NCBI GenBank assembly: GCA_963751345.1
Contig: CAVVUS010000017.1
Location: forward strand, 1-43,499
Source of the DNA: an uncultured Chloroflexia bacterium
Lineage (GTDB): Bacteria > Chloroflexota > Anaerolineae > B4-G1 > SLSP01
Direction: 5' to 3'
DNA: 43,499 bases
The translations under genes were made by a program, and so were the position numbers. The notes beneath the pieces were generated by a model that worked only from the letters and a program-made list of their open reading frames with translations, was not told where the DNA came from and searched no databases. The stretch's first letter is position 1. Each line of letters starts with the position of its first letter. Positions 5,096 to 35,488 of this stretch are shown here, piece by piece.

Positions 5096-5172
5096 GGTAG
5101 TCGGCGGAGTTGGTTTTCGCCCGAACCCTGTTAGCATGCCCGGACGTAATATCTAGCGACGAAAGGATCCTG

Positions 5173-5655
5173 ATGAAGATCTCGGACGGCAAGGCTGTGC
5201 AGATTGACTATACGCTGAAAAACGATGCGGGGCAGGTACTGGATAGCTCTGAGGGGCGGCAGCCCCTGGCCTATCTGCACGGGGCGGGCGGCATCATTCC
5301 GGGGCTGGAAGCGGCGCTGGAGGGCAAGGGAGCGGGTGATACGCTCTCGGTGTCGATCCCACCCGCGCAGGGGTACGGCGAGCGCGACGACGCGATGGTC
5401 ATGACGGTGGATCGCTCGATGTTCGAGGATCCCAGCCAGGCGCAGGTGGGGGCGCGATTCCACGTGCAGACAGACAAGGGCGTCCACCTGGCGACGGTGA
5501 CCGCCGTGACCGCGGACCAAGTGACGCTGGATCTCAACCACCCGCTGGCGGGCGAGACGCTCCACTTCGACGTGGCGGTGGTGGACGTGAAGGAGGCCTC
5601 CGAGGAGGAACGGGCGCACGGGCACGTGCACAGCGGACATGGGCACGCGCACTAG
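5173..5655 (+). CDS. slyD: FKBP-type peptidyl-prolyl isomerase SlyD
   Basis: YLHGAGGIIPGLEAAL, DLNHPLAGETLHFDV, His-rich tail HGHVHSGHGHAH. Confidence 0.93.
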   Translation: MKISDGKAVQIDYTLKNDAGQVLDSSEGRQPLAYLHGAGGIIPGLEAALEGKGAGDTLSVSIPPAQGYGERDDAMVMTVDRSMFEDPSQAQVGARFHVQTDKGVHLATVTAVTADQVTLDLNHPLAGETLHFDVAVVDVKEASEEERAHGHVHSGHGHAH

Positions 5656-5702
5656 CGGAGAATGAGGGGAGATCCTCGGGCAAGGCCATCTGCTGCCGGA
5701 GA

Positions 5703-5763
5703 AGACCTTTGGGGTTTGTTTCGTCGAGTAGGCGCCTGCCCGACAGGAAAACCCCAAAGGTCT
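5703..5763. repeat. REP-like palindrome, family B (AGACCTTTGGGGTTT...AAACCCCAAAGGTCT)
   Basis: Inverted arms; further copies at 18018-18050 and 24503-24561. Confidence 0.85.
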
Positions 5764-5906
5764 GACCGCCGGCGAGCCAACTCATTTCCGAGAGTCTCCG
5801 CCGTCTCTGCACTTGGGGGCAGGTAAGCCGGCTCCAGGGCCAGGGCATCTGACCTTGCAGGAAGCTGTGATCTTCTGACTGCGTTTGGAGGCGTGACAAA
5901 GGTGAG

Positions 5907-6563
5907 ATGACATTGCCGAAGAAGCCCTCTCCAGAGGATACTGCCAACCAGGTCGCGAAGACCTTCTTCGGGGTCGGGGACGACCCGGCCTCGACCCGGG
6001 CCGCCGTCCGGAGGCTGCTCCTTGCCGCCCTCGAAGTGGCCGTCCTGATCCCTGCGCTGTTCTACCTGCGGTTTGGCGCGGTCGGCGGGTTGGGTTGGGG
6101 CATGACCGTCTTCTTTGTGGTCTACTGCCTGCTGGCGGCGGTGGGTCTGCACTTCCGGTCGAAGACGGAGTACCACACCCCTGTCGCGCTCCGCGGCGAT
6201 TGGCTCGACCGGATCGGGGCGTTCTGGTTGGTCGCCTGTGCGTTTGGGCCGTTGTTCGGATGGATGATCACGTCCGCTCTCCCGCTGACGGAGACAAGCT
6301 GGCGTTGGCTGTACGCACTTCGGGTCGTGTTGGCTGCAGGGCTGCCGCTGATCACGGCCCTGCCGGCGACGCGCTACCTCAGGGGCAAGGCGACGCTCGT
6401 GGGTCTGCCGATCCTGGTGATCATCACCCTGCTCCCGATCTGGAGTGTGACGAATGTCGCCCGCGATCTGTGGCAGGGCCCGGTTGTGTCCCGTGCTCAA
6501 GATACGGGACAGACTGAGCTGTATTTGCAGCACACGGATCGGTATCTGGGCAATCAGAGGTAG
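5907..6563 (+). CDS. Hypothetical integral membrane protein
   Basis: 218-aa ORF with several hydrophobic helices and a plausible RBS. Confidence 0.65.
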   Translation: MTLPKKPSPEDTANQVAKTFFGVGDDPASTRAAVRRLLLAALEVAVLIPALFYLRFGAVGGLGWGMTVFFVVYCLLAAVGLHFRSKTEYHTPVALRGDWLDRIGAFWLVACAFGPLFGWMITSALPLTETSWRWLYALRVVLAAGLPLITALPATRYLRGKATLVGLPILVIITLLPIWSVTNVARDLWQGPVVSRAQDTGQTELYLQHTDRYLGNQR

Positions 6564-6813: not shown

Positions 6814-6963
6814 GTAGAGACGTGGCGGTGCCACGGCTTCTGAGCGCAGCACCTACGGGGCGAAGACAGAAGATGTCCCGGCGGGATGCCTGTATGCGAC
6901 GTGACGCTGTCCGGCGTCCGCCGCTTGTGTCGCCGGAGACGTGGCACCGCCACGTCTCTACAG
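6814..6963. repeat. Inverted pair of GTAG-type REP elements
   Basis: GTAGAGACGTGGCGGTGCCACG (6814) and GAGACGTGGCACCGCCACGTCTCTAC (6936); 27 bp recur identically at 27108-27134. Confidence 0.75.
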
Positions 6964-7031
6964 CGGGGAAGGTCGACTTAGGATCGGGTCACAGCGCCGC
7001 CGTCCGGCGCGACATCAGGGAGGTGAGTGAG

Positions 7032-7722
7032 TTGAGCGACAAACGGCTCGCGGGCTATCGGGTTGCGCTCTGGGTGAGCGGCGTCATTATCGTGGCGATG
7101 TTGGCCGTGTCCACGTATGCGTGGTTCCGGATCCCCGATGGGGCGCAGGTCTGCACCCATTGGAATGCCGCCGGTGTCTGTGACGGGCACGGCGGCAAGT
7201 TCGTGGGGCTGTTTCTGATGCCGATCATCGTGGCCGGGGTGGTGGGGCTCTTTGCTGCCATCCCGCATATCGAGCCGCGCCGCAGTTCACCTGCGCCAAT
7301 CGGCCAGGGCCTATGTCGCGGTGTGGATGGTGATGCTGCTCTATTTCCTGGCGTTACACATCATCCTGACGCTCAGCGTGCTCGGCGTCGCGGTCGACAT
7401 CGGCTCGCTCGTGCCGCTCCTCGTAGGGCTGATGTTCGTCGTGATCGGCGCCTTCCTCGGCAGGGTGAAGAGCAACTACATGATGGGCATTCGCACGCCC
7501 TGGACGCTGTCGAGCGAGTTGTCGTGGAAGAAGACGCACCGGCTGGGCGGGTGGCTGTTCATGGTGGAGGGGGTGCTGGTCGCGGTGGGCGCGATTGCGT
7601 CCCGGGGCCCGCTGTGGGTGTATTTGTTGATGGGCAGTATTGTGGTGCTGCTGGTCACCGTGACCGTCTATTCGTACATCGTGTGGAAGGGCGATCCGGA
7701 GCGGACGTCGGGCGACACATAA
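7032..7722 (+). CDS. SdpI/DUF1648 family membrane (immunity-like) protein, frameshifted near 7280
   Basis: THWNAAGVCDGHGGK (DUF1648-like) and SNYMMGIRTPWTLSSELSWKKTHRLGG (SdpI signature). Confidence 0.85.
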
Positions 7723-7825
7723 GCGCCGTGGGGAAGGGCAGTACGGACCTCGATGCTTCCCGAAAGGTTCTCCCACGTCCAAATGCGATAGCCCGAATGC
7801 TTACGCTGCCCTACCGGGGTAAGCC

Positions 7826-8461
7826 TCACGTCTTGAGGTTCAGAACTTCTTCGTCGGCCAGCAGCTTCTGCAGGAGCGCCTCATGTGCTGCTGCGGGTCC
7901 GTTCAGCAGCCACCGGCACCTGATGGTCTGCTCCAACTTGGTGATCCTCTCCGAGTAGATACGAAGATGGTGGGCGGTGATGTAGGCCCGCAACTCCTCG
8001 ACCAGAGCGGGACGCAGCACGGTGGTCACCTCATAGATAGCTCGGTAGTGCCCCCGGGTGATCAGCCGCTCAATCTGGGGGAGGGCCGCGAGGACGACCA
8101 GCGCGACGACGGTGGCGCAGAGCGCCAGGACAACCCGGTCGCTGCCGACGGCCATGCCGATGGCCGCCACGATCCAGATGGTGGCGGCGGTGGTGAGGCC
8201 CCGCACCTGTCCACGCTGGTGAAGGATCGCGCCGGCACCCAGGAAACCGACGCCGCTGACGATCTGCGCCGCGATCCGACCGGGGTCGCCGGTGGTGCTC
8301 AGGCGCCGGGAGAGCACGGTGAAGAGGGTGGCCCCCACGCAGATGAAGGTGATGGTGCGCAGGCCGGCAGCTTTGTCGTGGAGCTCACGCTCGGCGCCGA
8401 TGATGCCCCCGAGGAAGAGCGCCAGCACCAGCTTGAGCACATCATCCCAATTGACGGCCAT
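7826..8461 (-). CDS. MgtC/SapB family protein
   Basis: IGAERE...AAGLRT, DPGRIAAQIVSGVGFLGAG, GLTTAATIW motifs. Confidence 0.92.
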   Translation of the reverse strand: MAVNWDDVLKLVLALFLGGIIGAERELHDKAAGLRTITFICVGATLFTVLSRRLSTTGDPGRIAAQIVSGVGFLGAGAILHQRGQVRGLTTAATIWIVAAIGMAVGSDRVVLALCATVVALVVLAALPQIERLITRGHYRAIYEVTTVLRPALVEELRAYITAHHLRIYSERITKLEQTIRCRWLLNGPAAAHEALLQKLLADEEVLNLKT

Positions 8462-9234
8462 AGTACCGATCCTTTCTGCTGTGCCCCCATTATCACGGAG
8501 AGCGGCCCCGGCACAAGGGCGAGCGACGATCCGCGTGTGGCCAGGTGCCCATCCGGCGTGATGGCCTCAGCCGGATCGAAGCGGGCGCCCAGATCGCCGG
8601 CCGAGCCGGCCAGGGCATAGCTTGCCGTCGTTAGCATACCGGTCACGGTCGCCAGGGCGTCGGTGTTCCGCTCCACGAAGCAGAGCTCTCCTTCGTGTTA
8701 GTAAGATATTGGGTATATTAATAGTCTAGCTATCCGAAGGAGTGTGTGTGTTAGTGCAACCACAGGTGCCATCGCGCTGACGCTCATCATCTTGCTCATC
8801 GTCTTCAGAAAACGGATTGGCGAGCTTCGAGCCGCCGCCGCGCTGATCGTCTCTTTTCGGCCCATTTTCGGCAAGTGCCAGGTAGAGACTGTCCAGTCAT
8901 CACTGAAGTTGTTTCTGAGATCCGTCATCCTTTGCCTCCGCGAGGAGCGTGGCGACAGCAGGATCTGTGCCACGACAGTCACAGATCCCGGGCCTATGGC
9001 TCAGGATGACCCCTACACCCTGTAGGCAGACTGTCGACTACGGGCGAGCGGCCGTTGAGATCGCGCTTCGCTCAGACGAAAGGACCGGCTGCGGCAACGA
9101 CGGAAGGTCTCGTCGAAGTAACCCCCGATGCGCTACTGATGCGGCGCGTCCGTCCCTTTTCTGCAGCCTGCGCTGCCGTTGTAGAGATGGGGTGCCGCAC
9201 GCCCTAGAGCTGCCACGATTCTGACCTCAGCCTG

Positions 9235-9269
9235 AGACACACGGCTGCCACCCCGGCAGCCGTGTGTCT
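9235..9269. terminator. Strong perfect hairpin upstream of the phage-like operon
   Basis: 15-bp stem AGACACACGGCTGCC/GGCAGCCGTGTGTCT with 5-nt loop; no clear U-tract. Confidence 0.35.
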
Positions 9270-9426
9270 GTTCCCGGCGAGCGGACCTTCGGGGCGAGCC
9301 CACGTCTGCCCGGGCCGGAACCTCCCAAGAGTCTTGCTCCTGCCGAAGTTATCCCCTTTTTCGCCCCGTAATCCCCAACATCTAGGGGTTTTCTCCACAG
9401 TTGACCACGAAATGTGGGGTGGAGGC

Positions 9427-9455
9427 TTGATTGGATAGAACATATGTTCTAATAT
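9427..9455 (+). promoter_or_regulatory. Sigma70-type promoter with overlapping LexA (SOS) box
   Basis: TTGATT (9427-9432), 17 bp, TAATAT (9450-9455); perfect 16-bp palindrome TAGAACATATGTTCTA (9436-9451) matching the GAAC-N4-GTTC Gram-positive/Chloroflexota-type SOS box. Confidence 0.8.
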
Positions 9456-9566
9456 GGAAGTATATGGACGACAAAGACGGCAGAGGAGGGGCCTTGTGGA
9501 AGTGGGACGGTATTTCGCGATTGATCTATACGCTGGGCTTCCGCGTGGCCCGCAGGGTGGTGATTG

Positions 9567-10123
9567 ATGGACCTCGATCGCCCCGGCGGGCCACGTCATT
9601 GTACGGCGACGAAGCGGGATGGGACGCCCTGCAAGGCTTGGGCGGTGCGGGGCAGCGATCCGCCCCGCTGTCCGGCCCACGCAGGAGCGCCTCTCGGGGC
9701 AAGGCCCCGCGACGACTGCGGGGCAAGCGTGCGGCGTCCCGGTCTGTGCCCCCTGCGGGCGACGAGGAGATGGTTCCGCTTCAGATGACGTATGTCGCCC
9801 CGAAGACGCCGAAGAAGCTCCTCGTCGGTGACGCCCCGGATCTCCCCACGGAAATGCCGTCGATCGATGAGGTCCTGATCGACCTGGCGGGCAGGCAGGC
9901 GCGGCTGTCCTTGCTCATCGAGAAGTGCATCAAGGATGAGACTCAGAATGTGACGGTGGCCGAGGTGTTGCGTCTCTTTGCGCTGCACGGCCAGAACGCG
10001 AGCCGGCTGGGGCGGCTACTGCGCGATCGCCTGGCGATACAGTCCGAGTCGGGTGATGAGTTCCCCGACGAACTCGCGCAGGTCTACGACGAGCTGTCGA
10101 GGCGGCTCGGGGTCGAGCTATAG
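9567..10123 (+). CDS. Putative terminase small subunit (HGGxSTG-like Cys/His N-terminus), frameshifted near 9700
   Basis: CTATKRDGTPCKAWAVRGSDPPRCPAHAG zinc-finger-like motif in one frame, helical C-terminus in another; lies directly upstream of TerL. Confidence 0.55.
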
Positions 10124-10138
10124 CTCAGGAGGCCGGGA

Positions 10139-11725
10139 TTGATCGCACGTGGGTACTACCGCTGGCTCTGTGAGTCACTGACCGACATCTCGGGCTTCAG
10201 CGAGCATATCGTCCGGCGCCCGCTGCGCGGCTATCAGTTGCGACCGGCGGCGGCGATCATGCACTCGATCCTGGAGAGCCGCGGCCTCACGTTCGCCGTG
10301 ATGATGTCGCGCCAGGCCGGCAAGAACGAGCTCTCCGCGCAGTTGGAGGCCTATCTGATGAACCTCCACGTGCGTGCCGGCGGCGGGATCGTGAAGGCGT
10401 CGCCGACCTTCAAACCGCAGACGCTCAACTCCATCATGCGGCTGACCGACCGGCTGGACAACGCCTGGAACGGGCGCAGGCACAGCGCGTTCCGTTACCG
10501 GCGCCGCGACGGCTACATCGTCGAACTCGGTGCCGCCCGCGCGTTTTTCTTCTCCGCAGAGCCCTCCGCCAACGTCGTCGGCGCCACCGCCTCGGTGCTG
10601 CTCGAAGGCGACGAAGCCCAGGACATCCTGCAGGCCAAGTGGGACAAGGATTTCTCTCCGATGGGCGCCTCGACCAACGTCACGACGGTCCTCTACGGCA
10701 CGGCCTGGACCTCGGAGACGTTTCTGGCGCGAACGATCGCCCACCTGGAGCAAGCTCAGGCCCGCGACGGTGTGCAGCGCGTCTTCAGGGTGACCGCCGA
10801 CGAGGTGGCTGCTGAGGTGCCGGCCTACGGCGCCTACGTGGCCGGCCAGGTGGCCCGTCTGGGTCGCGACCACCCCCTGGTGCGCACGCAGTTCTACCTC
10901 GAACCCATCGATGGGAGCGGAGGGCTCTTTCCCCCGGCCCGCAGGGCCCTGATGCACGGGGACCACGCGCGCCGCCACGACCCCGAGCCGGGTCACCGCT
11001 ACGCGCTGCTGATCGACGTGGCGGGCGAGGACGAGGCCGAGGGGAATGCGCTGGACCGGCTGATGCTTGCGAATCCACGCCGCGACGCCACCGCGTTGAC
11101 CGTGGTGGACGTGGTCGTTGAGCGCCGCAGGGGCGCCATCCCGCGGGGCTGCACCGCGACGGGAGCCGGCCTCGCCGAACGCCGTTTCCTCGTCGTCGAC
11201 CGGCTGCTGGCCTTGGGCACCCGCCACACCACCCTCTACGCAAAAATCCTCGCCCTCGTGGAACACTGGCACGCCGCCTGGGTCGTCGTCGATGCAACCG
11301 GGGTCGGCGCCGGCCTCGCGTCCTTCCTCACTCGCGCCCTCGGGGACCGTGTGACCCCCGTCGAGTTCTCGCCCAACGTCAAGAGCGATCTCGGCTGGGA
11401 CTTCGTCGGCCTCGTCGAAACCGGCCGCTATCAGGACTACGCCGCCGACGCCCGAGCGGACTCGGGTTCCCCCGATACCCGCCAGTTCTGGTATGAGGTC
11501 GAGGCTTGCACCTATGAGGTCGCGCAGGGGCCCGGCAAACGCATGCGCTGGGGAGTCTACGAGTCCCCCGCCTATGACGGCCTCGTCGCCCGTGGACACG
11601 ACGACCTGCTGATCTCGGCCGCCCTGTGCACCGTGGTCGACAAGCTGGCTGTGCCCGGCGATGCCGTCGGCCGCGCCCTCTTCCAACCGGATCCGCTGGA
11701 GGAAATAGACCGTGGTGAATGGTGA
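10139..11725 (+). CDS. terL: Phage terminase large subunit
   Basis: AGGAGG RBS; Walker A MSRQAGKNE, Walker B LLEGDEAQ, nuclease acidic motifs LLIDVAG, VVVDATGVG, GHDDLL; uninterrupted 528 aa. Confidence 0.88.
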   Translation: MIARGYYRWLCESLTDISGFSEHIVRRPLRGYQLRPAAAIMHSILESRGLTFAVMMSRQAGKNELSAQLEAYLMNLHVRAGGGIVKASPTFKPQTLNSIMRLTDRLDNAWNGRRHSAFRYRRRDGYIVELGAARAFFFSAEPSANVVGATASVLLEGDEAQDILQAKWDKDFSPMGASTNVTTVLYGTAWTSETFLARTIAHLEQAQARDGVQRVFRVTADEVAAEVPAYGAYVAGQVARLGRDHPLVRTQFYLEPIDGSGGLFPPARRALMHGDHARRHDPEPGHRYALLIDVAGEDEAEGNALDRLMLANPRRDATALTVVDVVVERRRGAIPRGCTATGAGLAERRFLVVDRLLALGTRHTTLYAKILALVEHWHAAWVVVDATGVGAGLASFLTRALGDRVTPVEFSPNVKSDLGWDFVGLVETGRYQDYAADARADSGSPDTRQFWYEVEACTYEVAQGPGKRMRWGVYESPAYDGLVARGHDDLLISAALCTVVDKLAVPGDAVGRALFQPDPLEEIDRGEW

Positions 11726-11840
11726 CCTTCTCGCCGCACTGGCATTCTCGGCCGGCTGTGTCGTCGGCCTCGCTTTCCCGAACCTGTTCGGAGTCTTCGC
11801 CCTGTCCGGCCGCATCACTGACCACGAACGCCTGCACTGA
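11712..11840 (+). CDS. Small hydrophobic peptide (42 aa), not in the ORF track
   Basis: GGAGG about 9 nt upstream of GTG; MVNGDLLAALAFSAGCVVGLAFPNLFGVFALSGRITDHERLH; overlaps the terL stop. Confidence 0.4.
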   Translation: MVNGDLLAALAFSAGCVVGLAFPNLFGVFALSGRITDHERLH

Positions 11841-11900
11841 TGGTGACGCGTGATGACGCAGACTCCGGTCCAGATCTGCTGTCACCACAGGAGGTCATAT

Positions 11901-13314
11901 CTGAGCCGTCTCACTGACGCCGTCGCTGTTCTGTTAGGTCGAGACGTTCGACCCCACGTGTACAACCGCCGCCGTCTCCGTCGCCGTCGACGACTCGCCC
12001 GGCTGGCAGGGCGTCAACCCCGCCCCCGGGGATCGCCCCTGGGGAGACATCTACGCCGACCTCGTCGACGCCCTCGACGCCTGGCGCAAGAACTTTATGG
12101 TCCGCCGTATCGTCGGCCTGACCCGGTCCTATACGGTCGGATCCGGTCTCACCGTCTCATGCGGCATCGAGGAGGTCGCCGAGTTTATAGACGTCTTCTG
12201 GAATCACAGCCAGAACAACGTCAGCCGGCGACTCGGGGAGATCTCCGATGCCCTGACACGCGACGGGGAGCTGTTCCCGATCCTGTTCACCAACCCCATA
12301 GACGGCATGAGCTACCTGCGCTTCAAATCGGCCCGCCAGATCCGCGAGATTGTCACCAAGCCCGACGACTTTGAGACCGTGCTATCGTTCACAGAGAACA
12401 CCGTCGCCCAGTCCCCGCGGTCCTGGATCTCGCCGGCCAACGACGCAGGCCGAGACGCTCCCGCTGCAGCCCGTGATGCTGCACTGGGCAGTCAATAAGC
12501 CCATCGATGCCACCCGCGGAGAGTCCGACCTTACCCCGATCCTACCATGGGCCCTCCGCTACTCCGAATGGCTGAAAGACCGGGTCCGCCTGAATCGCCT
12601 CCGCACCCGTCAAGGCATGCTCGACGTCGAGGTCGCCGACGATACCCAGGTTGAAGCCAAGCGCGCCCAGCTCCGCACAGGCAACCCCATCGACGCCGGC
12701 ATCTACGTCCACGGCCCCGGCGAAACCGTCACCATGCACAATCTCCAGATCAACGCCGATCGCAGCGAGGAGGACGGCCGGGTCCTGCGCCTGGCCATCG
12801 CTACAGGGTCCTCGCTTGCGCTGCACTACCTGGGAGAGGGGGAAGGCACCAACTACGCCACAGCCCGGGAGATGGGCGAGCCCACCGCCCGCTTTTTCCA
12901 GGACCGGCAGCAGCGCATCATCTGGTATCTGCACGACCTGGTCACCGTGGCCTACCGCCGCTATTGCGTTGTCCAGGGGATCACGCCGCCCGAGGATCTG
13001 CAGCTACAGACCAGTCCGTCACCGAGGTCGCCAGAGCAGACAACCAGAGCATAGCCTCCGCCACGTTGAGCATCGTCCGCGCCCTCGCCATCAGTGCCCG
13101 CCAGAACTGGATCGACGACGAGACCGCCTTGTCGATCGCCCTCAAGTTCGCCGGCGAGAACTACACCATCGAGGAGATCCGCGACATCCTGGCCACCGCC
13201 CGCAGCGAGGATGGAGACGACGACGCCGACGTCGACGTCGACGGGATCCCGGCACCACTGACGACGAACAACCGGTCACCGACGAGCAGGAGCCTTCCGA
13301 GTGACCTTGCATAA
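11901..13314 (+). CDS. Phage portal protein (several frameshifts)
   Basis: AGGAGG at about 11889; stitched frames give about 460 aa with portal-like segments (ALTRDGELFPILF, RGESDLTPILPW, HYLGEGEGTNYATAREM); position after TerL; start codon uncertain. Confidence 0.7.
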
Positions 13315-13389
13315 TGGCGCCAGCCTACTCCCCGATCGCCGGCGAGCTGGGGATACCCTGCCACCACTGGCGACACAGACGCCGGCATT

Positions 13390-13734
13390 TTGACGCCTGC
13401 GCGCCGGCATCCTGTCACCACTGGCCCGGCTGCCTACCTTGAGTGGACCAACTCCAACCCTAACCCCGCGTCTATCTGTGACATGTGCCTGCCGTTCATC
13501 GGCACGATATGGGAGCCCGGCACCGAGCCGCCCTTGCCCTTGCACCCGCACTGCTATTGCGCCTACTTCCCCACCGATCGCACACCCGCCCAAGGTCGTC
13601 CGCTGCCCGACGTCGACAGCCTACCGCCCAACGTCCGCGCAGCCTGGATCCGCTACACCGCCTGGCTCCTGCGCCTGGGTATCGTCCTGGTCCCCTTCCT
13701 GCTGCAGTTCGAGGAGGAGGCCCGCCAGTCATAA
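13390..13734 (+). CDS. Short minor head morphogenesis protein (Mu gpF/SPP1 gp7 C-terminal-like)
   Basis: ICDMC...PPLPLHPHCYC motif resembles the conserved HPNCRC motif; located between portal and protease. Confidence 0.6.
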   Translation: MTPARRHPVTTGPAAYLEWTNSNPNPASICDMCLPFIGTIWEPGTEPPLPLHPHCYCAYFPTDRTPAQGRPLPDVDSLPPNVRAAWIRYTAWLLRLGIVLVPFLLQFEEEARQS

Positions 13735-13759
13735 CCGTGACCACGAAGGAGATGAGTCT

Positions 13760-14445
13760 ATGCCCGGAACTGACCCGCAACCCGATGCACCCGGTACCTC
13801 GCCCATCAGCGACATCGACGCGCTTTCCTCGCATGCCCGCCACTGCCCGCCGGCCGCGTGCTCCTGGAGCCCGCCGAATCCGACGGCCGCCACGAGTACG
13901 CCTGCGCCTTCACCGCTGCCGGCCGCGTCAAACGCTCCGACCAGCAGCCCGCCGACTGGCTCATCCCGGCATCCGCCCTCGCCCAAGCCGCCCCCCTCTA
14001 CGACGCCCGCCCTTCCTACCTCGATCACCCCGACCTCTTCGGCTTTGGCTGGCATCAGGAGCCCAAGGTCTCGCGTCTCGTCGGCGTCACCTTCAACCCG
14101 CGACTGGTCCCCCGAGGAGGAGACCGTCCTCGGATCCCTCAGGCTTTACGACAAGGCGCCCGGGTCGCCCTGGGCACTTCGTCGGCGCCCTCTTCGACCA
14201 GATCCTCAGCGACAAAGCCAAGGGCCTGGCCGTCCCACCCATCGGCTTATCGGCTGTCTTCTTCCACACCACCCACCTCGACGAAGACACAGGACTCAGG
14301 ATCACAGACGCCATCGACTACGTCGAATCCGTCGACGTCGTCTATGATCCCGGCGCGGCCGGCTATGTCCGGGAGGCCCTCGCCGCCCTCAGACCCAAGC
14401 ACCTATTACCCGGCCGCCAATCTCACACCAGCAGGAGGACCCGCA
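13760..14445 (+). CDS. Prohead maturation protease domain (frameshifted, possibly fused to capsid)
   Basis: AAGGAG RBS and ATG 13760; YLDHP, IGLSA and VESVDVVYDPGAAG motifs resemble phage prohead serine proteases; lies just before the capsid gene. Confidence 0.6.
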
Positions 14446-15761
14446 ATGCCCGAAGAACTCGAAGCCATCACGCACCGAAGCAACCCCACGGCCCCGGCAC
14501 CACGGCCCCCGCGCCCGCGCCCGCGCCCGCAGTCCCGGCCGCGTTGACGCACCGCCTTGCCGCCCTCGAAGCTCAGCTGACCCGCCTCACCCAGGCTATG
14601 ACCAGCCTCGCCGAGGATCGCACCATCCACAGCGTCGAGAATCCCGTCCGCTCGATGCAGTCCTCGCTTGACCAGGTCACCACCGCCATCGAGGCCATGC
14701 TTGCCGGCGTCCGCCCGGCCGGCGGCATCCCGCCGCTGTCCGGCGTCCGCGAGCTCTACACGCTCCTCTCCGGCGACTTCGAGATGACCGGGATGTTTCA
14801 CCCCGATCGCGTCTATCTCGCCAACGTCAACACCTCGACCATGGCCGGTCTCGTGGCCAACGCCCTGAACAAGCGGGTCGTCAATCAGTACCAGGAGTAT
14901 CCCAAGTGGTGGGAGGCTGCAGTCACCGAAGAGGACTTCGCCAACCTCCAGGAAGTGAAGTTCATCACCCTAGGCGGGATCGGGGAACTCCCCACCGTCG
15001 CAGAGGGTGCCGTCTACACCGAACTCACCTGGGACGACCAGACCGAGACCGCAACCTTTATCAAGAAGGGTGGATATCTCGGGCTCACGATGGAGGCCAT
15101 CGACAAGGACGACACCCGCCGCCTGCAGGCGGCTCCTCGCGCCCTCGCTCAGGCTGCCTGGCTCACGCTCGGTAAGACGATCGCTGCGCTCTTCACCGCG
15201 AACTCCGGCTATGGTCCGCAGATGTCCGACACCAACTATTGCTTCGACTCCTCCAACCACGGCAACCTCGGAGCGTCCGCCTTCTCCCACGCCGCGTGGG
15301 TCGCAACCAAGGTCGCTATGATGAAGTTCGCCGAGTTGAACAGCAGCGAGCGGCTTTCCGCCCTCACCAAGCCCCATCTGCTGTGGGTCCCCGTCGACCT
15401 GGAGGACGCAGCTGTTGCCGAACTCGCCTCCGGAGAGGGTCAGGTCGGATCCGCCGACTACAACGTCAACGCCGACGCCCTGGCCAATGCCTTGACCGAT
15501 CGCCTCGGCCGGGCCCGCGAACGTGTCATCGTCTGCCCCTTCTGGACCGATACCGCCGACTGGGTCGCCCAGGCGGATCCTCGCCTCTACCCCGGCCTCG
15601 GTCTCGGCTATCGCTATGGTCGTGTCCCCGAAGTCTACAGCGTGGCCAGCCCCACAGCCGGCCTCATGTTCACCAACGACACGATGCCCATTAAGGTCCG
15701 CTTCTTCTTCGCCGCAGGGCTCACCGACTACCGGGCCTGGTACAAGCACATCGTCTCGTAG
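14446..15761 (+). CDS. Major capsid protein, Mu gpT-like, with N-terminal scaffold-like region
   Basis: AGGAGG and ATG 14446 (frameshift near 14500); VANALNKRVVNQY, ELPTVAEGAVY, GGYLGLTMEAIDKDDTRRL...PRALAQAA pattern of Mu gpT-like/HK97-fold capsids. Confidence 0.8.
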
Positions 15762-15763
15762 CA

Positions 15764-15987
15764 CGTAAGCGCGCTCTATCGCTTACGCGTGATCTCACCG
15801 CGGGGCTAACGCCCCCGCAGAAAGGGGAACAGCCGGACGTGATGCACCTATACTTGTGTGAACAACTTCACACACGTCATCGAGCGATGATGGGGAAATG
15901 TCCTACCCGCTCACGTCCGGCGCCCTTCCCTGTCGTGGTGACACCGATCGCGCTCGAGGAGCTGCAGGCCGTCACCACTCACGTCCG
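15764..15987 (+). ncRNA. Candidate structured intergenic RNA after the capsid gene
   Basis: Six complementary pairs in about 220 nt, including the 11-bp GCCGGACGTGA/TCACGTCCGGC stem that encloses two hairpins. Confidence 0.35.
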
Positions 15988-15998
15988 CTAACTTGCTA

Positions 15999-16033
15999 AC
16001 GTTCACACGTTTTCACGTTCTCACGTTCCAACG
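15999..16033 (+). repeat. ACGTTCNN octamer tandem array before an RBS
   Basis: ACGTTCAC-ACGTTTTC-ACGTTCTC-ACGTTCCA; a second array lies at 16889-16962. Confidence 0.7.
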
Positions 16034-16044
16034 AGGAGGTCCCA

Positions 16045-16404
16045 ATGTTCCGTCCGTTCTGTCACACCATCGTCGTCCCCGGCACCCTCGCCGCGGCTGT
16101 CCAGTACACCTGGACCGCCCCCATGGATTGCACGCTCCAGCACGTCTAGCATGGTGCAGTCCAACGCCGGCGACGGCCGGATCAAGATCGGCACGTCTGC
16201 CGATGATGACATCTTCCTCAGCTACACCGACAATGGGCCAGTCCGGCACGCCCGTCGAGGTCGTCGGCGCCGGCGGGCTTCCGCGGCGCCGCCACCCCCC
16301 GCATCAAGAAGGGGGACATCGTCAAGCTCAATCTGGACTACGACGGCGCCTCCGGCACCGCTGCCGCCGATGCTGTCATCGTCCTGACGTTCGAGGAAGG
16401 GTAA
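16045..16404 (+). CDS. Small beta-rich virion protein (capsid decoration candidate), frameshifted
   Basis: GAGGAGG and ATG; stitched about 118 aa MFRPFCHTIVVPGTL...IKIGTSADDD...LNLDYDG...IVLTFEEG; directly after the capsid gene. Confidence 0.55.
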
Positions 16405-16510
16405 GCGTAGACGGCGCGCCTCAGGCCTGCCGCCGCCTCCCGTTCGCCGTGGCGACATGCTCACCGGCTGGACCCGGAGGCGTGTCGCCACACTCAAAAG
16501 GAGCGCACCT

Positions 16511-16889
16511 ATGCCCAGTCTTCTACAACGTGCCGTCCTCGAATTAGGGATCGATGTACCCGTCTACCGCTAAAGCCGAGAGAGACGAGAGGGGGTGATC
16601 GTACTCTATCTCTATGGCGGCCGTGTCGTCGAGTGGACCCCGCCAACCTTGCCCGGAATGGAAGACGTCGAGAAGGTGGAGACAGCAAACACCGCTGGCC
16701 AGGCCCAGTCACCATCGATGATTTCACGTCGTTCCCGGGATCGGCGACGTCTCGGCCCAGGCCCTCACGCGTGCCGGCTTCCGCACCTTCGACGATCTCG
16801 CTTCCGCCCCCGATGACGACCTGAAGGCCGTCCTCACCGGCTACGCCTTCCGCAAGCTCAAAGACTGGCTGTACGTCAACCGGTCCTAA
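16511..16889 (+). CDS. Helix-hairpin-helix domain protein, frameshifted
   Basis: AAGGAG and ATG; stitched C-terminus DDFTSFPGIGDVSAQALTRAGFRTFDDLASA is an HhH motif. Confidence 0.55.
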
Positions 16890-16971
16890 CGTTCACACCC
16901 AGTCTGCTGGGCCACGTTCCAACGTTCACACGTTCGCCCTGAGTACCTCTCACGTTCCAACGGAGGTCCCT

Positions 16972-17438
16972 ATGATCATCGATAAGACCAAGCCCGAGCC
17001 CGAGCCCGAGCCCGGCACAGCCTACGCCTTCCCGCCTATCAACGTCGTGGTCCCTGACCAGCAGAAGCAGCAGCTCTACCAGGCGATCATGACCCTGATC
17101 ACCGTCGTCCTGTCCATCGCCCTGACCCTGACCGCCCAGGTCATCAGCCAGGCCGTCGACACCAACGCCCGAGCCCGTGCCCGGCACCAGGCTGCAGACC
17201 CGCTCCAGACGCTGGGTACGTCCCACTTCCTCGACCTCGCTGTCACCGGCGACCTGGCGTCGACGTCGGCACTGACCTCACAGCCGGAGGAGACGCCGCC
17301 ATCACTGGCGACCTGTCTGCTGACGCTATCACTGGCGCTTCTCTTGTCGTCAACTCGTCACGCCGTCCTCACCCAGTCGCCGCCATCACTATCACCGGAG
17401 TGCTCACCGACGTCGTCATCCTGTACCACCAGAACTAA
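16972..17438 (+). CDS. Membrane-anchored protein with short beta-repeat C-terminus, frameshifted
   Basis: GGAGG and ATG; TM segment AIMTLITVVLSIALTLTA; stitched tail VTGDL-GVDVGTDL-TAGGDA-AITGDL ending at TAA 17436-17438. Confidence 0.5.
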
Positions 17439-17470
17439 GGTACCAACGGCCGACCATCCAACATGTCCAC

Positions 17471-18019
17471 GTGAACACTTTCTCCTACTGCTGCGCGTCC
17501 CAACGCTCGGCCGTCTCCAAAGCCGCGGGCGTCGAACCCCTCACCTCGCCTCCGATGCACTTCGAGGCCTTCGACGCCCGCTTGCTTGAGAACCGCGATC
17601 TGCTCTACTTCGCCCTTCACGGCCTGCCCGATCAGCCCTACTGGTACGGAGACGACTACCTCACCGCCCTGTCCGTCGACGCGTTCCACGGCCTCAATCT
17701 CCGCCAGTGCACCGTCTTCGTCGCCAACTGTCACTTCACGGCCTCGCCCTTCCTGCCGGCCATCCAGGCCTGTCGCCCGCGCGCCATCATCGCCGGCAGC
17801 GGAGAGAACTACGCCCGCTCAGCCTCCCTCGTCGGTCCCCATCTCCTGGGCTACTACCTGCGCCTCGCGCCTACAAGCCGGCCTCCCGCCCCGCTCGCCC
17901 TCGCCGCCGCCAAGTTCCGCCTGCAGGTCACAACCAACCGCCTCAAGAACCGCACCGACAAGCGCACCACCGAGGATCTCGCCGCCAACCTCGACGCCCT
18001 CCAATTCGAGCTGCTCTGA
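17471..18019 (+). CDS. CHAT/caspase-like (clan CD) cysteine protease candidate
   Basis: DLLYFALHG and TVFVANCH with CHAT-like spacing (His-Gly...Cys dyad), followed by AIQACRPRAIIAG. Confidence 0.55.
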   Translation: MNTFSYCCASQRSAVSKAAGVEPLTSPPMHFEAFDARLLENRDLLYFALHGLPDQPYWYGDDYLTALSVDAFHGLNLRQCTVFVANCHFTASPFLPAIQACRPRAIIAGSGENYARSASLVGPHLLGYYLRLAPTSRPPAPLALAAAKFRLQVTTNRLKNRTDKRTTEDLAANLDALQFELL

Positions 18020-18050
18020 CCTTTGGGGTTTTCCGAGACCCCAAAGGTCT
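18018..18050. repeat. REP-like family B copy inside the phage-like operon
   Basis: GACCTTTGGGGTTTTCCGAGACCCCAAAGGTCT, same arms as the copies at 5703 and 24503. Confidence 0.8.
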
Positions 18051-18068
18051 TCCCAAAGGAGGAACACC

Positions 18069-18435
18069 ATGCCTTACCCGGTCACCCAGTACAACGAACC
18101 CGTCCTCACCGCCGCCACGATCGCCGCCTCGGCATCGCTCAGCGACGCCGTGCGCCTGCCCCCCGGCCACGTCCTCGTCGGCATCGTCATGCCCGCCACC
18201 TGGACCGCCGCCGATCTCACCTTCCAGTTCTCCGCCGACAACGTCACCTACCAGAACGCCTATGACGCCGCGGGCACCGAGTTAACCGTCACCGGCACCG
18301 CCGCCGCCACCATCCCCGTCGATCCCCTCTACTTCCGCTGCGCCCCCTTCCTCAAGGTCCGCTCCGGCACGGCCGGCACGAGCCGTCGCTCAGGCTGCCG
18401 CCCGCTCGATCGGCCTCGTCTCCCGGCCCATGTAG
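18069..18435 (+). CDS. Phage-type beta-sandwich protein, paralog 1
   Basis: AGGAGG and ATG; ATIAASASLSDAV...VGIVMPATWTAADLTFQFSADNVTY...FLKVRSGT. Confidence 0.65.
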
Positions 18436-18458
18436 CAACGTAAACCGGAGGCTGACGC

Positions 18459-18823
18459 ATGCCCTACCTGGTCACCGCCGACACACCCGGCCGCGTCCAC
18501 ACCGCCACCATCGCGCTCAGCGGATCGCTCAGCGGCGCCGTCGCCATCCCGCTACACTCACACCCTGGTCGGCCTCGTGATGCCCACCGCCTGGGACACC
18601 GCCGACCTCACCTTCCAGGGCTCCTTCGACGGCACCACCTACGCCAATCTCTACACGGACGGCGGCACCGAGGTCAACGTCCCCACCGCTGCCGGCCGCT
18701 CCATCTACGTCAACACCGCCGAACTACGCGCCTATCCCTACCTCAAGATCCGCTCCGGCACCCAGGCCACACCCGTCGCTCAGACCGCCAGCCCGCGTCA
18801 TCACCCTGATCTCGCACCCGTAA
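18459..18823 (+). CDS. Phage-type beta-sandwich protein, paralog 2, frameshifted
   Basis: GGAGG and ATG; ATIALSGSLSGAV...VGLVMPTAWDTADLTFQGSFDGTTY...YLKIRSGT, clearly paralogous to the upstream gene. Confidence 0.65.
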
Positions 18824-18893
18824 GGGGCCCGTAATGGCGACACCGGCCTCCGGATGGCCACGTCACCACGCCTCCGTGAAAGGAGCCCCGCCG

Positions 18894-20763
18894 ATGCAGC
18901 TCTGCACCAATCCCAGCTTTGAGCAGCAATGGACCGACCTACCGCCCGTCGGCACCCTCACCAACCAGCAGCCGGCCGGCTTCTCGCTCACCATCCGCCC
19001 GCTCGGCACGCCCTTGCTCAGCACCGGCTACACCCCCGACGATCCGCCCCGCTTCGAGGTCGTCGCCCTGATCCCCGAGTGTGTCCACAAGCTGCGCGCT
19101 CAGATGCCCGACGCAGATCGCCGCATCCTCGACGGAGACGTCTCGTTACAAGATCTTCGGATCCGGTCCCTTCAGCGTCGACCTCGCCTATCCTTGCATC
19201 GTCCTCAGCCGGCACTCGTCAATATCGCCGTCCCTGTGGAAGTGCACAACCACGGCGACGGCTCCCCGGGAGCTGCTGTCTGGCGCCTCATCGTCGACAT
19301 CGCTTGTCTTTCCCTGGCGCACCTTCGGCGCCGGCTTCTCTGACCGTGAGTGGACCACCGAGACCTACTGCCCTGCACTGCGACGCGAACACCCGCCTCA
19401 CCGTCACCCTGCAGGTGAGGGTCGCGCCACACCCGGCGCCCCCATCGACTTCTTCACCGATGCCTGGTACATCGACCTGACGCCCGATCCCGACAGCCCG
19501 AGCCCCGAGCCCGAGCCTGCGAACGCAAGCCCCTGGCGAATGGTTCGACGCCTTCGGCTACGTGGTCGACTTCGATCTCATCACCGATCCCGCCGCCCGT
19601 CTCGCCTACTACATCCAGGCTTGCAGCGAAGGTCGCGTCATCGGCCCGTCTCACGATCACCTCGCCACCTGGCCACCCGGGGCCCGGTCCTACACCGTCA
19701 CCCTGCCCGGCATCCCTGTCGATCGCCGCTCCGCATTCACCGCCTACTATGCCAACCTCAACCCCCGGATCGCCCTGCGCTACGTCGACACACCCGCAGA
19801 GCCCCGCCGGATCCTCCTCTTCCTCCGGATCCCGAGCCCCCGCCCCCGCCCGTCACACCCCCGCCCCTGTGGCGGCCCGCAAACTACGTTCCTCGAGGAA
19901 CGAAGCTGGGCTTTCACGGCGTCGGGCGATGGAGGACAGTCCGATAAGATCTTCGCCCCCCTGTTGCCCCTCGGAGCCGCCCCGCCCACCGCAAAGGTCA
20001 TCGTCTCGCTCGGCGCTGCCGGCGACATCCTCCGCGAGGCTGATCGCGCCAGACCGGAGCCACGCCCGCCATCGTCGGCCGGCTCATTGATGCGCCTGGC
20101 CTGGGCAACCTGGAGTGGTGGAGATCCGACCTTGACCAACGCTGGCAGGCAGAAAAGCGCATGGCCGAGCTTATGCCTCGCTGGGAGCCCTTCCGGCAGC
20201 ACTACCGCTACTGGGAGATCATCAACGAGCAGAACCCGCCCACACCCGAGGCAGCCGCCGCCCAAGCCCGCTTTATGATCCACTGCATGGACATCGCGGA
20301 GGCCAACGGCTACCACCTCGCGCTCTGGTCTCACTCCGTCGGCACCCCCGAGCCCTGGGCCTGGGATGCCTGCGCCCCCACCGGAGTCTTCGAGCGCGCT
20401 GCAGCCGGTGGCCACGCTATCGCGCTGCACGAGTACGGCGACGTCAACCTCAACCTCGGATCCCACCTCGGCCGCTATCGTGACGTCTACACCCGCCACA
20501 TCCTACCCCGCGGCCTCGACATCCCCCTCTACATCACCGAATACAACCTCTGGCGCGAGACCCTCGGCTACGTGGATAGTGGGTATCTGCTGGATCAGTG
20601 GATCCGCTACGACGCTCTGGTCTCCACCGATCCTTACGTCGCCGGAGTGCACATCTACAGCGTCGGCATGGTGCACGACCTCTACGTCCAGGCTATCTAC
20701 GACCTCTACCCCCGCCTTCCGCGACTACGCCGTCAGCGTAAAGGAGCGATCAATGGACACTAA
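18894..20763 (+). CDS. Multidomain clan GH-A glycoside hydrolase with CBM-like N-terminus (many frameshifts)
   Basis: N-terminal NPSFE motif, Pro-rich linkers, TIM-barrel motifs KLGFH, YWEIINEQ (acid/base), ALHEY, PLYITEY (nucleophile). Confidence 0.65.
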
Positions 20764-21304
20764 CGGCATCCCTCGCGCGGTCGTCCTTCCGCCTCCCATG
20801 AAGAACCTCGAAAAGCCTTGGTACGAGGCAGCCCACCTCGGCCCCTACAACTACCACCCCGAACGCTGCGAAGACTGGAATCTCGAATCGATGGGGAACA
20901 CCGACCTCGGCGAACCCCTGGTCGCGCCCTTCTCCGGCCTGGTCCTGGCCGCGGCCAACTACGGCGGAGGCACCGGTCGTGTCTGTCAGATCCTGGGGAT
21001 CACGCCTTCCGGCGCCTTGATCGTGTGGGGAGGCTGGCACCTTCACTCGCTCTTCGTCGCCGCCGGCCTGGTCGTCGAGGTCGGCGATCCCATCGGCACC
21101 ATCGGCAACGCTGACGGCCGCTATGCCGGGGCCCACCTCCACGAGCAGATCTGCATGTCGTCAAATCTGCCAGCGGCATCCCCGCCCCCACCACCTTTGC
21201 CTCAGACAACCGCTATGCCTGGCAGCAGCCAGTCCCGCTTCTACCTCGACCACGGCGTCGACCCCGACCTCATCCGCCACGTCACCCTCATGGACGGCCA
21301 ATGA
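20753..21304 (+). CDS. M23 family metallopeptidase
   Basis: AAGGAG and ATG; YHPERCEDWN, GEPLVAPFSGLV, VEVGDPIGTIGN...AHLHEQI (HxH). Confidence 0.75.
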   Translation: MDTNGIPRAVVLPPPMKNLEKPWYEAAHLGPYNYHPERCEDWNLESMGNTDLGEPLVAPFSGLVLAAANYGGGTGRVCQILGITPSGALIVWGGWHLHSLFVAAGLVVEVGDPIGTIGNADGRYAGAHLHEQICMSSNLPAASPPPPPLPQTTAMPGSSQSRFYLDHGVDPDLIRHVTLMDGQ

Positions 21305-21403
21305 CGTGGTGACAGAGCCCCGACGATCGTCGTGATCACGATCCCTTTGTCACCATCCGCAACTCCACACGTCGGACACGTTCCCACCTCCCAGGAGGCT
21401 ACC

Positions 21404-22058
21404 GTGAGCTACACACTCGCCACCTTGAGAGACCGCGTCGAACTGCAGCTTTCCGACGTCACCAACGCCCGCTACTCCACCGACGACCTCGACGAAGGCA
21501 TCCGCCAGGCCCTCAACGCCTACACCGAACACCTGCCCCTCCACGCCGTCGGCACCGTGGAGCTTGCCGCTGCCGGCCGCGAGATCGACGTCTCTTCCCT
21601 CACCTACCGCACCATCGACCGCGTCTGGTGGAACTACGACGAGGACGCCCCCGACCACCCGCCCCACTGGCGCAACTTCGACGTCTGGCCCGGAGATCTG
21701 CTCTTCATCAGTGATCCCGAGGAACCCGCCGGCGGAGACGTCGTCCGCATCTTCTACACCACCGACCACACCCTTGAGGACCTCGACTGCGCCGCAGGCG
21801 ACCACCTTCCCCGACGCCGACGCCTCGCTCATCGCCCAGGGCGCCGCCGCCTTCACCGCCCTCGCCCGTCGAGCCCACATCGCCGAAGAACTCAACGACA
21901 ATGAGTGGGCCCCCCGCAACCTCAAGGAGTGGGTCGAGGCCCGTCTCGCCGACTTCTACCGCCAACTCGATGTCCGCGCCCGCCAGGCTGCCGCCCATGC
22001 TGCAGGCATCGCCCCCGGCCCCTCCCTCGATCGCTGGGATGGTCTCAACGTCTGGTGA
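21404..22058 (+). CDS. Phage head-completion/adaptor-like protein, frameshifted near 21790
   Basis: AGGAGG and GTG; TLATLRDRVELQLSD...RYSTDDLDEGIRQAL N-terminal pattern typical of head-tail adaptors. Confidence 0.55.
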
Positions 22059-22336
22059 GGAGCGGCGGGCACCCGCGTTCGACGGGGCGGGTCAGACGGA
22101 CCAGTCTCTCAGATTGGCCCAATCGGGTACGTTTCGTCTCGGGGGATAAAGAAGGTCTCTGTCCACGGATGCAGCCGTAACCGCAAGGCGGAGATCCTGC
22201 ACTGAGTTCAGGATGACAACTCACGCCCATCCTGAAACGCACCCGCCCAATCTGGGCTATTGACAAGAGAGGAGGAATGCGTCAGGATGGGGGCAGGGAA
22301 TGGGAACGGTTGCTCGTGATAGAGAGGAGGCCGACC

Positions 22337-23367
22337 ATGGATTACACAGATTACCCGCGTCCCGTCGTGGAGGACATCGCGCGGCTCCGGCGGAGGATCA
22401 CCGCGTCCGGGATCCCTGAGAAGCACGTCGACGCCAACCTGCTGATCGGCACGTGGAACATCCGCGGCTTCGGGCGGGTCTTCGACGAGTGGACCGAGAA
22501 CCCCGGCAGCCCCAAGCGCAACCTGCGGGCGATGGCCTGCATCGCCGAGGTGGTGCGGCGGTTCGACGTGATGGCGATCCAGGAGGTGAAGCGCGATACC
22601 AGCGGGCTGCGGCTGCTGGTCGACGGTTTCCTGGGACCCAACTGGGGCGTGGTGCTGAGCGACGTGACGGCGGGCGACGCGGGCAACGGCGAGCGGCTGA
22701 CCTTCGTCTACGACAAGCGCCGCGTGACCCCCTCAGGGCTCGCGGGCGAGATCGTGCTGTCCGCCCACAGCCGACGGAACGCCTTCGGAGCAGTTCGATC
22801 GCACGCCCTTCATCGTGGGCTTCATGGCCGGTTCACCCGGGTCGTCGAAGGCCGAGCGCTTTGCGCTGCTCACGGCGCACATCAAGTACGGCAGCCGTGC
22901 CGGAGGACCGGCTGCCCGAGCTGCGCGCGGTCGCGGCCTACACCGCCACCGAGATCCGCGACCGGGCCACGGCGGGCGGCGAGGAGAACAACCTGATCGT
23001 GCTGGGCGACTTCAACATCGACGAGCGCGGCAGCAACCCGCTCTTCCAGGCCTTCGTCTCCTCGGGGCTGGTCGTGCCCGCCGGGCTGCTCAACCTGCAG
23101 ACCACGTACGGGACGAAGCCCAAGTACTACGACCAGATCGCGTGGTTTATGGGCGACCTCGATCTGCTGGTGACCCAGCGGGCGGGGGTGATCGACATCG
23201 CGGGTGCGGTCTTCCAGGAGCTCACGCTGTCCCAGATGTCCTACCGGGTTTCGGATCACTTCCCGGTCTGGGTGGAGTTCCAGATCGATCGGAGCACGGA
23301 GGTGATGGCGGAGACCCTCGGCGTGGATCCGGGCATGCCGGATCCATTGGGGACGGTGCCGGACTAG
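22337..23367 (+). CDS. Endonuclease/exonuclease/phosphatase (EEP) family protein, frameshifted
   Basis: IGTWNI, DVMAIQEV, IVLGDFN, YYDQI, VSDHFPVW motifs. Confidence 0.9.
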
Positions 23368-35289: not shown

Positions 35290-35488
35290 TTAAGTTTGTC
35301 GGCTGATACACAGTGTCATTGTAGCCAATCGCCGTCCGTCTACAAGACTCAGCTGGCGAAGCCGCCGGGGCTTGCAATTTAGACTATAATATCTATAATA
35401 ATAGGATAAAGTGGAGCGGCGTTGCCGGCCGTGGGCATAGGTCCGCGCAGCGTGGTCTGGGTCTGAGTGTAAGGGTGGGGAGCGGAGG

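Follow-up and report, generated by a model that had tools for sequence, protein, structure and literature searches.

Among the closest described systems is that of phage GIL01 of Bacillus thuringiensis, in which LexA boxes inside the promoters P1 and P3 (a late promoter) repress both (PMC4551915, PMC6182141). In GIL01 it is host LexA, with no dedicated phage repressor, that silences the element, and the boxes lie in promoters, including that for virion maturation. The locus described here would be analogous in these respects. It lies in the window, the whole stretch of 43,499 nucleotides that was analysed. GIL01 has features of its own: it is a tectivirus whose linear DNA is not integrated, and it has tandem boxes, a co-repressor (gp7) and a LexA-like activator (gp6). 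Unlike GIL01, the element in the window has a single box and tailed-phage-type genes (terminase, portal and HK97-type capsid), and is carried in the chromosome of a Chloroflexota host. With such genes, and with no S24/LexA-like frame in the window or in the 80 related loci compared with it, the element is not a LexA-governed prophage of the GIL01 type.

A sequence-only reading of the window had argued that late genes are normally under phage regulators. This premise has a known exception in the late GIL01 promoter, which is repressed directly through its LexA boxes (PMC6182141). The principle of LexA repressing late phage genes is thus already known. What differs here is the phylum, the tailed-phage gene type, the single box, the chromosomal element with structural genes only and the breadth of the family.

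Two other systems invite comparison. LexA sites in the regulatory regions of the CTX phage (rstA/rstR) also link induction to the SOS response (PMC3323433), but they act jointly with a phage repressor, and their targets are early or regulatory genes rather than a terminase-led structural operon. The gene transfer agent RcGTA is a host-regulated chromosomal cluster of about 13 kb with structural genes only, lacking lysogeny and replication genes. The effect of LexA on it is indirect, through CckA (PMC9638019), whereas the box in the window lies in the cluster's own promoter. The window cluster likewise contains structural genes only, and its terminase is under purifying selection. However, the flank in the closest relative (L001) is unrelated to that in the window and some genomes have two to four loci; relatives carrying replication and immunity genes also exist.

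The sequence-only reading had given GAAC-N4-GTTC as the LexA site of Firmicutes, Actinobacteria and Chloroflexota, for the first two in agreement with the sites of B. subtilis and M. tuberculosis (PMC3323433, PMC4234289), and the box in the window has the same palindromic core with an AT-rich four-base spacer. Its TA flanks are those of the cyanobacterial (Anabaena) LexA site, TAGTACTAATGTTCTA (PMC4759255), from which it differs at 3 of 16 bases (one core position and the four-base spacer). Searches of the literature gave nothing on the LexA regulon of Chloroflexota, on phage modules under LexA control or gene transfer agents in this phylum, or on a case equivalent to a LexA/SOS box at a prophage terminase. 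Among the papers listed, judged by title or abstract, none described a gene transfer agent in Chloroflexi.

The promoter and the genes behind it

The putative core promoter (Table 1) has hexamers that each match the consensus at four of six positions (8/12 together) and is omitted by a promoter scan with a threshold of 9/12. Both hexamers are nevertheless conserved in seven aligned relatives. The palindrome is perfect. It takes up the last 14 bases of the 17-base spacer and extends into the -10 hexamer, whose initial TA it supplies, and its GAAC-N4-GTTC core has an AT-rich four-base spacer. G+C content is 25% in the box and 28% in positions 9427-9466, compared with 65.8% in the whole window. 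The sequence-only reading had described TTGATT-N17-TAATAT with a 16-bp palindrome in the spacer, forming an AT-rich patch in GC-rich DNA; this was exact. The lowest G+C content of any 40-base patch in the window (20%) is found at 35369-35417, just 5' of an MFS transporter gene.

In the conserved block upstream of the promoter, GAAAxGTGGGG(G)TGG adjoins the -35 hexamer and there is also an inverted CCCC/GGGG pair. The block may be a second protein site or an old end of the element. In the non-conserved flank further to the left, positions 9235-9269 contain a perfect 15-base stem with a 5-base loop and no T run after it.

Transcription of the operon is predicted to start near 9462, with a leader of about 105 bases before the first start codon (TTG 9564 or ATG 9567). 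A leaderless transcript from ATG 9464 and a TTG start at 9494, after GGAGG, were both rejected: there is an indel relative to L001 between the two, and the small protein has its conserved N-terminus encoded from 9564/9567, in a different frame. The inverted repeat around this start codon is nearly identical in L001.

Table 1. Positions of the putative promoter, the box and the genes of the phage-type element in the window
Feature	Position	Strand	Observation
Conserved upstream block	9344..9426	+	Two ATCCCC repeats; common to L001, L003 and L004
-35 hexamer TTGATT	9427..9432	+	TTGnnn 16-18 bases 5' of the -10 in 15/18 sites of the same geometry
17-base spacer	9433..9449		
Candidate LexA-type operator, palindrome TAGAACATATGTTCTA	9436..9451	.	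Sequence and comparison with relatives
GAAC-N4-GTTC core GAACATATGTTC	9438..9449		
-10 hexamer TAATAT	9450..9455	+	TAnnAT unchanged in 7 aligned relatives
14-base inverted repeat	9544-9557 / 9582-9595		93% complementary; flanks the small-protein start codon
Small protein, first gene	9564..10123	+	N-terminal zinc ribbon C..C.AWA..G..C..H and conserved helical C-terminal domain
Large terminase subunit, 528 aa	10139..11725	+	TTG start after AGGAGG
Portal gene, three frame segments	11959-12441, 12452-13000, 13015-13200	+	PHROG portal matches on two pieces
Prohead protease/scaffold-HK97-type major capsid fusion	13438..15761	+	Frame break near 14130-14160
Runs of ACGTTCNC	15991-16027, 16914-16975		8-base unit, 3-4 copies, directly 5' of two internal genes
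Protein of ~120 aa	16045-16401	+	tblastn with L001, L007, L008 and L013 proteins
Helix-hairpin-helix-like protein	16503-16886	+	tblastn with L001, L007, L008 and L013 proteins
Protein of ~185 aa	17471-18019	+	tblastn with L001, L007, L008 and L013 proteins
Two adjacent copies of a ~110-aa domain	18066-18383, 18459-18792	+	Duplicated in L001 too; resemble one 121-aa L007 protein
Protein 97% identical to its L001 counterpart	19925-20664	+	tblastn
M23 peptidase	20366-21304	+	Pfam Peptidase_M23, E 2e-7
Head-tail adaptor-like gene, last of the element	21332..22058	+	Frame break near 21800

The element is taken to extend from about 9344 to 22058, since nucleotide homology with L001 starts at 9344, 83 bases before the -35 hexamer, and the flanks to the left are unrelated. 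It is a phage-type structural module of ~12.7 kb, read rightward amid ordinary host genes: to its left lie mgtC, an SdpI-like gene, TetR and FKBP, and to its right a phosphatase-family gene and a sensor. In the window frames (1-43497), Pfam and PHROG scans found no integrase, repressor or replication genes. There are no tRNA genes in the window, no direct repeats were found as attachment sites around 9344 and 22058, and an Rfam scan of 8400-22400 gave a single sub-threshold microRNA match. Between 12000 and 22000 the GC skew of the element's coding strand is strongly negative (down to -0.31), which sets it apart from the host DNA on either side.

The small protein encoded by the first gene is a candidate small terminase or terminase partner. 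In the window it is split over two frames, one from the start codon to about 9734 and the other, at 9854-10123, encoding the C-terminal domain; the L001 homologue is a single 190-aa frame that matches the window in both. An alignment of 12 members shows invariant C, C, W, A, G, C and H residues, and most of the substitutions between the C-terminal domains of the window and L001 look third-position (by eye, uncounted).

The second gene product has the Walker A/B ATPase motifs and the RNase H-like nuclease motifs by which a large terminase would be recognised. The Walker A, Walker B and acidic nuclease motifs (RQAGKNE, LLLExDEAQ, DVAGE, DATG, HDD) are kept, with few exceptions, in 70 homologues. 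Weak matches were obtained to Pfam Terminase_6C (E 0.0025, under the cut-off) and to the PHROG large terminase (E 1e-4), and identity with a 'terminase-like family protein' of Bacillus phage vB_BboS-125 is 36.7% (E 7e-54). A profile search against solved structures gave no match.

The three portal segments each match the intact portals of L007, L008 and L013. The capsid fusion matches Pfam Phage_capsid_4 (E 6.5e-26), the NCBIfam protease/capsid fusion (E 2e-34, under the cut-off) and PHROG entries. The adaptor-like gene matches L007:19280-19933 and L013:11824-12507, in two frames, and the L007 protein itself has a weak match to Pfam SU10_adaptor (E 0.008). The two ACGTTCNC runs end near-identically, with TCACGTTCCAACG, a ribosome-binding site, TCCC and ATG, and could be an internal regulatory or translation-initiation element.

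Several of these genes are read in more than one frame when compared with intact homologues (L007, L008, L013 and L001): two frames for the small protein (9564-10123), three for the portal (11959-13200), and two each for the capsid fusion (13828-15758) and the adaptor (21404-22043). L001 also has frame breaks, at other positions, and host genes in the window are apparently split as well (the MFS transporter, 35489-36792, and a DUF1648/SdpI gene, 6822-7958). The breaks may be assembly indels or real decay, and the window copy may be inactive unless they are assembly errors. In comparisons with L001 and L004, dN/dS is 0.21 for the terminase and 0.31 for the capsid fusion, so that selection was acting until recently. 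The gene mgtC lies to the left of the element in both the window and L004, and its divergence is similar to that of the terminase (dS 0.60 for mgtC and 0.89 for the terminase).

Recurrence of the box at operon starts

Taken by itself, the box in the window is not beyond chance. GAAC-N4-GTTC occurs once where 0.43 occurrences are expected, and at least once in 34 of 100 shuffles. Nor are perfect 16-base palindromes rare: the window has seven, of which the box is the only AT-rich one, compared with a mean of 1.5 in 200 Markov-1 simulations (158 had at least one). These figures would allow the palindrome to be a functionless AT-rich chance occurrence. The comparison with related loci contradicts this, both by positional enrichment and by the invariance of the site in an alignment of seven relatives (see below), and we consider chance extremely improbable. 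It is because of this positional recurrence upstream of the terminase gene, and not of the window statistics, that the box is taken as a real operator.

Homologues of the large terminase number more than 3,900 in the protein collection. Identity is 58-88% for the best 120, and the few of these that are named come from Anaerolineae. The relatives compared are the best 80 of 161 confirmed loci (320 candidate stretches were scanned), all labelled Chloroflexota except one labelled Eisenbacteria. Together these 80 loci (994,917 bases) contain 42 perfect GAAC-N4-GTTC cores, compared with 9.9 expected from base composition. Thirty-four of the 42, in 34 loci, lie no more than 2.2 kb upstream of the terminase gene (at 369-2063 bases), a region that makes up 14.3% of the bases (binomial P 6e-22).

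A scoring matrix was derived from these 34 perfect sites and that of the window (35 sites in all, with an A/T-rich four-base spacer), and its results are therefore partly circular. With a threshold of 14 bits it identifies 52 matches in ~1 Mb, 51 of them upstream of a terminase gene and one inside the L007 element. Upstream sites of at least 18 bits are present in 47/80 loci: in 37/54 with at least 2.2 kb of upstream sequence, in 5/9 with 1-2.2 kb and in 5/17 with less than 1 kb. Conservation upstream of orthologous operons, which the sequence-only reading had put forward as a check, is thus borne out, with a perfect core in 34 loci and a near-consensus site in 47. At the same 18-bit threshold, the box is absent from 17 of the 54 loci in the best-covered group. 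These 17 belong to a few tight clades of the terminase tree (70 rows; 11 rows without a 430-aa frame were excluded), and some are lone terminase genes amid host genes. Box-bearing loci occur in both halves of the tree and make up the whole of the window's clade (8/8). When seven members of this clade are aligned, what stays invariant in the intergenic region is the box together with the TAnnAT -10. The L001 box has one C-to-T change in its left half.

A few additional boxes were observed. One lies between structural genes inside the L007 element (L007:18346-18357) and another follows a consensus promoter (TTGACA-17-TATAAT) 5' of the portal-like gene of L080 (L080:15432-15443). In L042 (5746, 5853) and L020 (2247, 2426) boxes are paired, 107-179 bases apart.

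At 45 of 48 sites the box overlaps a sigma-70-type core promoter, in one of two geometries. In the first (18/48, including the window and its whole clade), the box fills the spacer and its final TA begins the -10. The right half is GTGC in 10 of these 18 and, with the TAnnnT that follows, provides the TG of an extended -10; this accounts for the single-base deviation from the palindrome that recurs among the sites. In the second (27/48), the box begins 0-9 bases past the -10, in most cases TGnTAnnnT, and covers the expected transcription start. Both geometries are positions in which a repressor blocks RNA polymerase.

The box also keeps to operon starts when the gene order changes. In L051 and L066 the gene behind it is that of the portal, and the small-protein and terminase genes are about 6 kb away; a portal-like gene follows it in L080, and helix-turn-helix or replication genes in L021, L037 and L079. 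The box thus tracks the start of the operon rather than any one gene. The palindrome had been placed by the sequence-only reading inside the promoter heading the terminase operon, and this agrees both with its position at operon starts and with the overlap with core promoters.

The usual position of the box, just 5' of the small-protein and terminase genes, is a frequent place for packaging sites, and the palindrome could in principle be a recognition site (pac- or cos-like) for the terminase and not a transcriptional operator. We consider this very improbable. A packaging site would not account for the overlap with -35 and -10 elements in two geometries, nor for boxes that stay at an operon start kilobases from the terminase genes. 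Moreover, such sites normally co-vary with the small subunit, whereas the box is constant among loci whose small proteins are 20-47% identical to that of L001. On these comparisons the palindrome is a functional-looking, conserved promoter operator for a conserved trans-acting factor.

Candidate factors for the box

In the mechanism that we propose, TAGAACATATGTTCTA would be the operator of a sigma-70-type promoter driving a single long operon of phage origin that runs rightward (about 9344-22058). A dimeric host repressor recognising GAAC-N4-GTTC, most likely LexA, would occupy the spacer and the first bases of the -10 and so exclude RNA polymerase. DNA damage would lead to RecA-stimulated self-cleavage of LexA, the promoter would become free, and expression of the packaging and capsid genes would follow. 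Since repressor, integrase and replication genes are all missing from the element, its only switch would be the SOS repressor of the host. DNA damage probably turns the cluster on. We infer each of these steps (LexA binding, repression by this binding, damage induction, and a product from the window copy).

That host LexA controls the promoter is the best reading by motif match, and we think it reasonably probable. The assignment goes by motif likeness because the lexA and recA promoters of these hosts lie outside the sequence compared. Host SOS genes were sought with motif patterns for RecA, LexA, UvrA, UvrB, RuvB and DinB. Neither these patterns nor tblastn with E. coli K-12 LexA and RecA detected a homologue of LexA or RecA in the window or the 80 loci, and the only uvrB found (in L045) has no recognisable box in ~330 bases upstream. 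In ~1 Mb there is no convincing site at ordinary host genes, except perhaps before a 52-aa lipoprotein-like frame in L022. A relaxed scan for the core (at most one mismatch, AT-rich spacer, intergenic) gave nothing convincing besides the element promoters, L080 +5431 and L022 +5678. A LexA regulon would be expected to surface a few times in ~1 Mb unless it is small, and this counts against LexA. In favour of LexA, a 2002 study of Dehalococcoides reportedly found that a Chloroflexota LexA binds GAAC-N4-GTTC. The flanks of the LexA consensus are C/G in Bacillus and Mycobacterium and differ from the TA of the box, a further point against LexA. The proposed mechanism is also weakened by the 17 of 54 well-covered loci in which the box is absent and by hexamers that match the consensus at four of six positions each.

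The same evidence for a conserved trans-acting binder would fit equally well a conserved host factor whose output is not SOS: a LexA that is not cleaved after damage, or another regulator with a GAAC-N4-GTTC-like site. The lack of a host repair gene with the motif in ~1 Mb and the TA flanks are consistent with such a factor. Some cyanobacterial LexA homologues with a site similar to the box, related to TAGTACTAATGTTCTA, are also reported to be unresponsive to DNA damage (PMC4759255). On the other hand, induction by damage is the usual logic of phage-derived elements and is what the LexA boxes of GIL01 bring about (PMC4551915, PMC6182141). We consider a factor of this type rather unlikely, and the reported binding by the Dehalococcoides protein also speaks against it. 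As no convincing site was seen at ordinary host genes in ~1 Mb and some cyanobacterial LexA proteins with a similar site are reported not to respond to damage, SOS induction is something that we infer from the box.

That the box serves a regulator of the element's own, whether an immunity repressor of Cro/CI type or the zinc-ribbon small protein as repressor of the operon that encodes it, is distinctly unlikely. This is suggested by L021, where a divergent Cro/CI-type gene and a rightward operon flank the box in a classical immunity layout, and by the presence of the zinc-ribbon small protein in nearly all box-bearing classes, usually as the first gene after the box. However, the sister loci of L021 (L037 and L079) have no Cro/CI-type gene, and neither the window element nor the three-gene cassettes described below encode such a repressor. 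The upstream neighbour of the box could be called at 40 of 48 sites: one is of Cro/CI type, three are HTH_17 and four are receiver-only, while the rest are unrelated housekeeping genes or belong to no family. No regulator (repressor) gene is therefore conserved next to the box. As for the small protein, L007 has the box with a 91-aa small protein that lacks the zinc ribbon, and in L051, L066 and L080 the box is distant from the small-protein gene or no such gene is present. Immunity operators normally diverge with their repressors, whereas the same 16 bases are found with terminases that are only ~50% identical (about 50-88% among box-sharing relatives). This is why a conserved host factor, with LexA as the favoured candidate, fits better than an element-specific repressor.

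Three-gene cassettes and the wider family

In 20 loci only three genes follow the same box: those for the zinc-ribbon small protein, the terminase and a sigma-70 region 4 protein (for example, L029:9357-12123). These loci are L022, L023, L026, L027, L029, L030, L031, L034, L035, L036, L038, L042, L050, L055, L059, L061, L064, L070, L071 and L078. The sigma-70 region 4 domain was identified in all five cassette proteins tested. The cassette terminases keep the catalytic motifs, the flanks are unrelated housekeeping genes, and there was no portal or capsid match in the sequence around these loci. The cassettes form one clade of the terminase tree (SH-aLRT 94), with 21 rows including L028, which has no sequence past the terminase gene. 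In L022, L029, L042 and L055 the divergent gene just 5' of the box encodes a receiver-domain protein with no output domain detected.

Other loci have a terminase gene alone, or with one or two structural genes, amid host genes (L041, L046, L057, L073, L045, L052, L060 and L062). They carry neither the box nor the small-protein gene, and the ATPase and nuclease motifs of the terminase are kept. In L041, L046, L057 and L073 the terminase gene is at about 9935-11464, with dnaK about 3.7 kb downstream. L068 has cas1-/cas2-like frames (N-terminal sequences only) at 5150-6490, about 3 kb upstream of its terminase locus, which also includes replication-initiator and DnaC-like genes.

A more far-reaching idea, which we put forward as doubtful, is that Anaerolineae have domesticated an SOS-triggered, GTA-like particle system with host LexA as its sole switch, in two forms. 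One form would be the self-contained structural cluster, held under purifying selection and situated beside mgtC since the lineages of the window and L004 split. The other would be the three-gene cassette as a master unit, whose sigma-like protein would activate structural genes elsewhere in the genome. If this GTA-like reading is true, such a system would exist in a phylum in which none has been described.

Sludge, sediments and soils are rich in Anaerolineae, which are seldom cultured. If LexA binds the box, a large and widespread family of phage-derived modules in these bacteria would be wired directly to the DNA-damage response without a repressor of its own, and the box would give first access to the LexA motif and the SOS regulon of Anaerolineae. 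DNA damage would then be predicted to set off the production of capsids and the packaging of DNA in these communities, perhaps with gene transfer or lysis as well.
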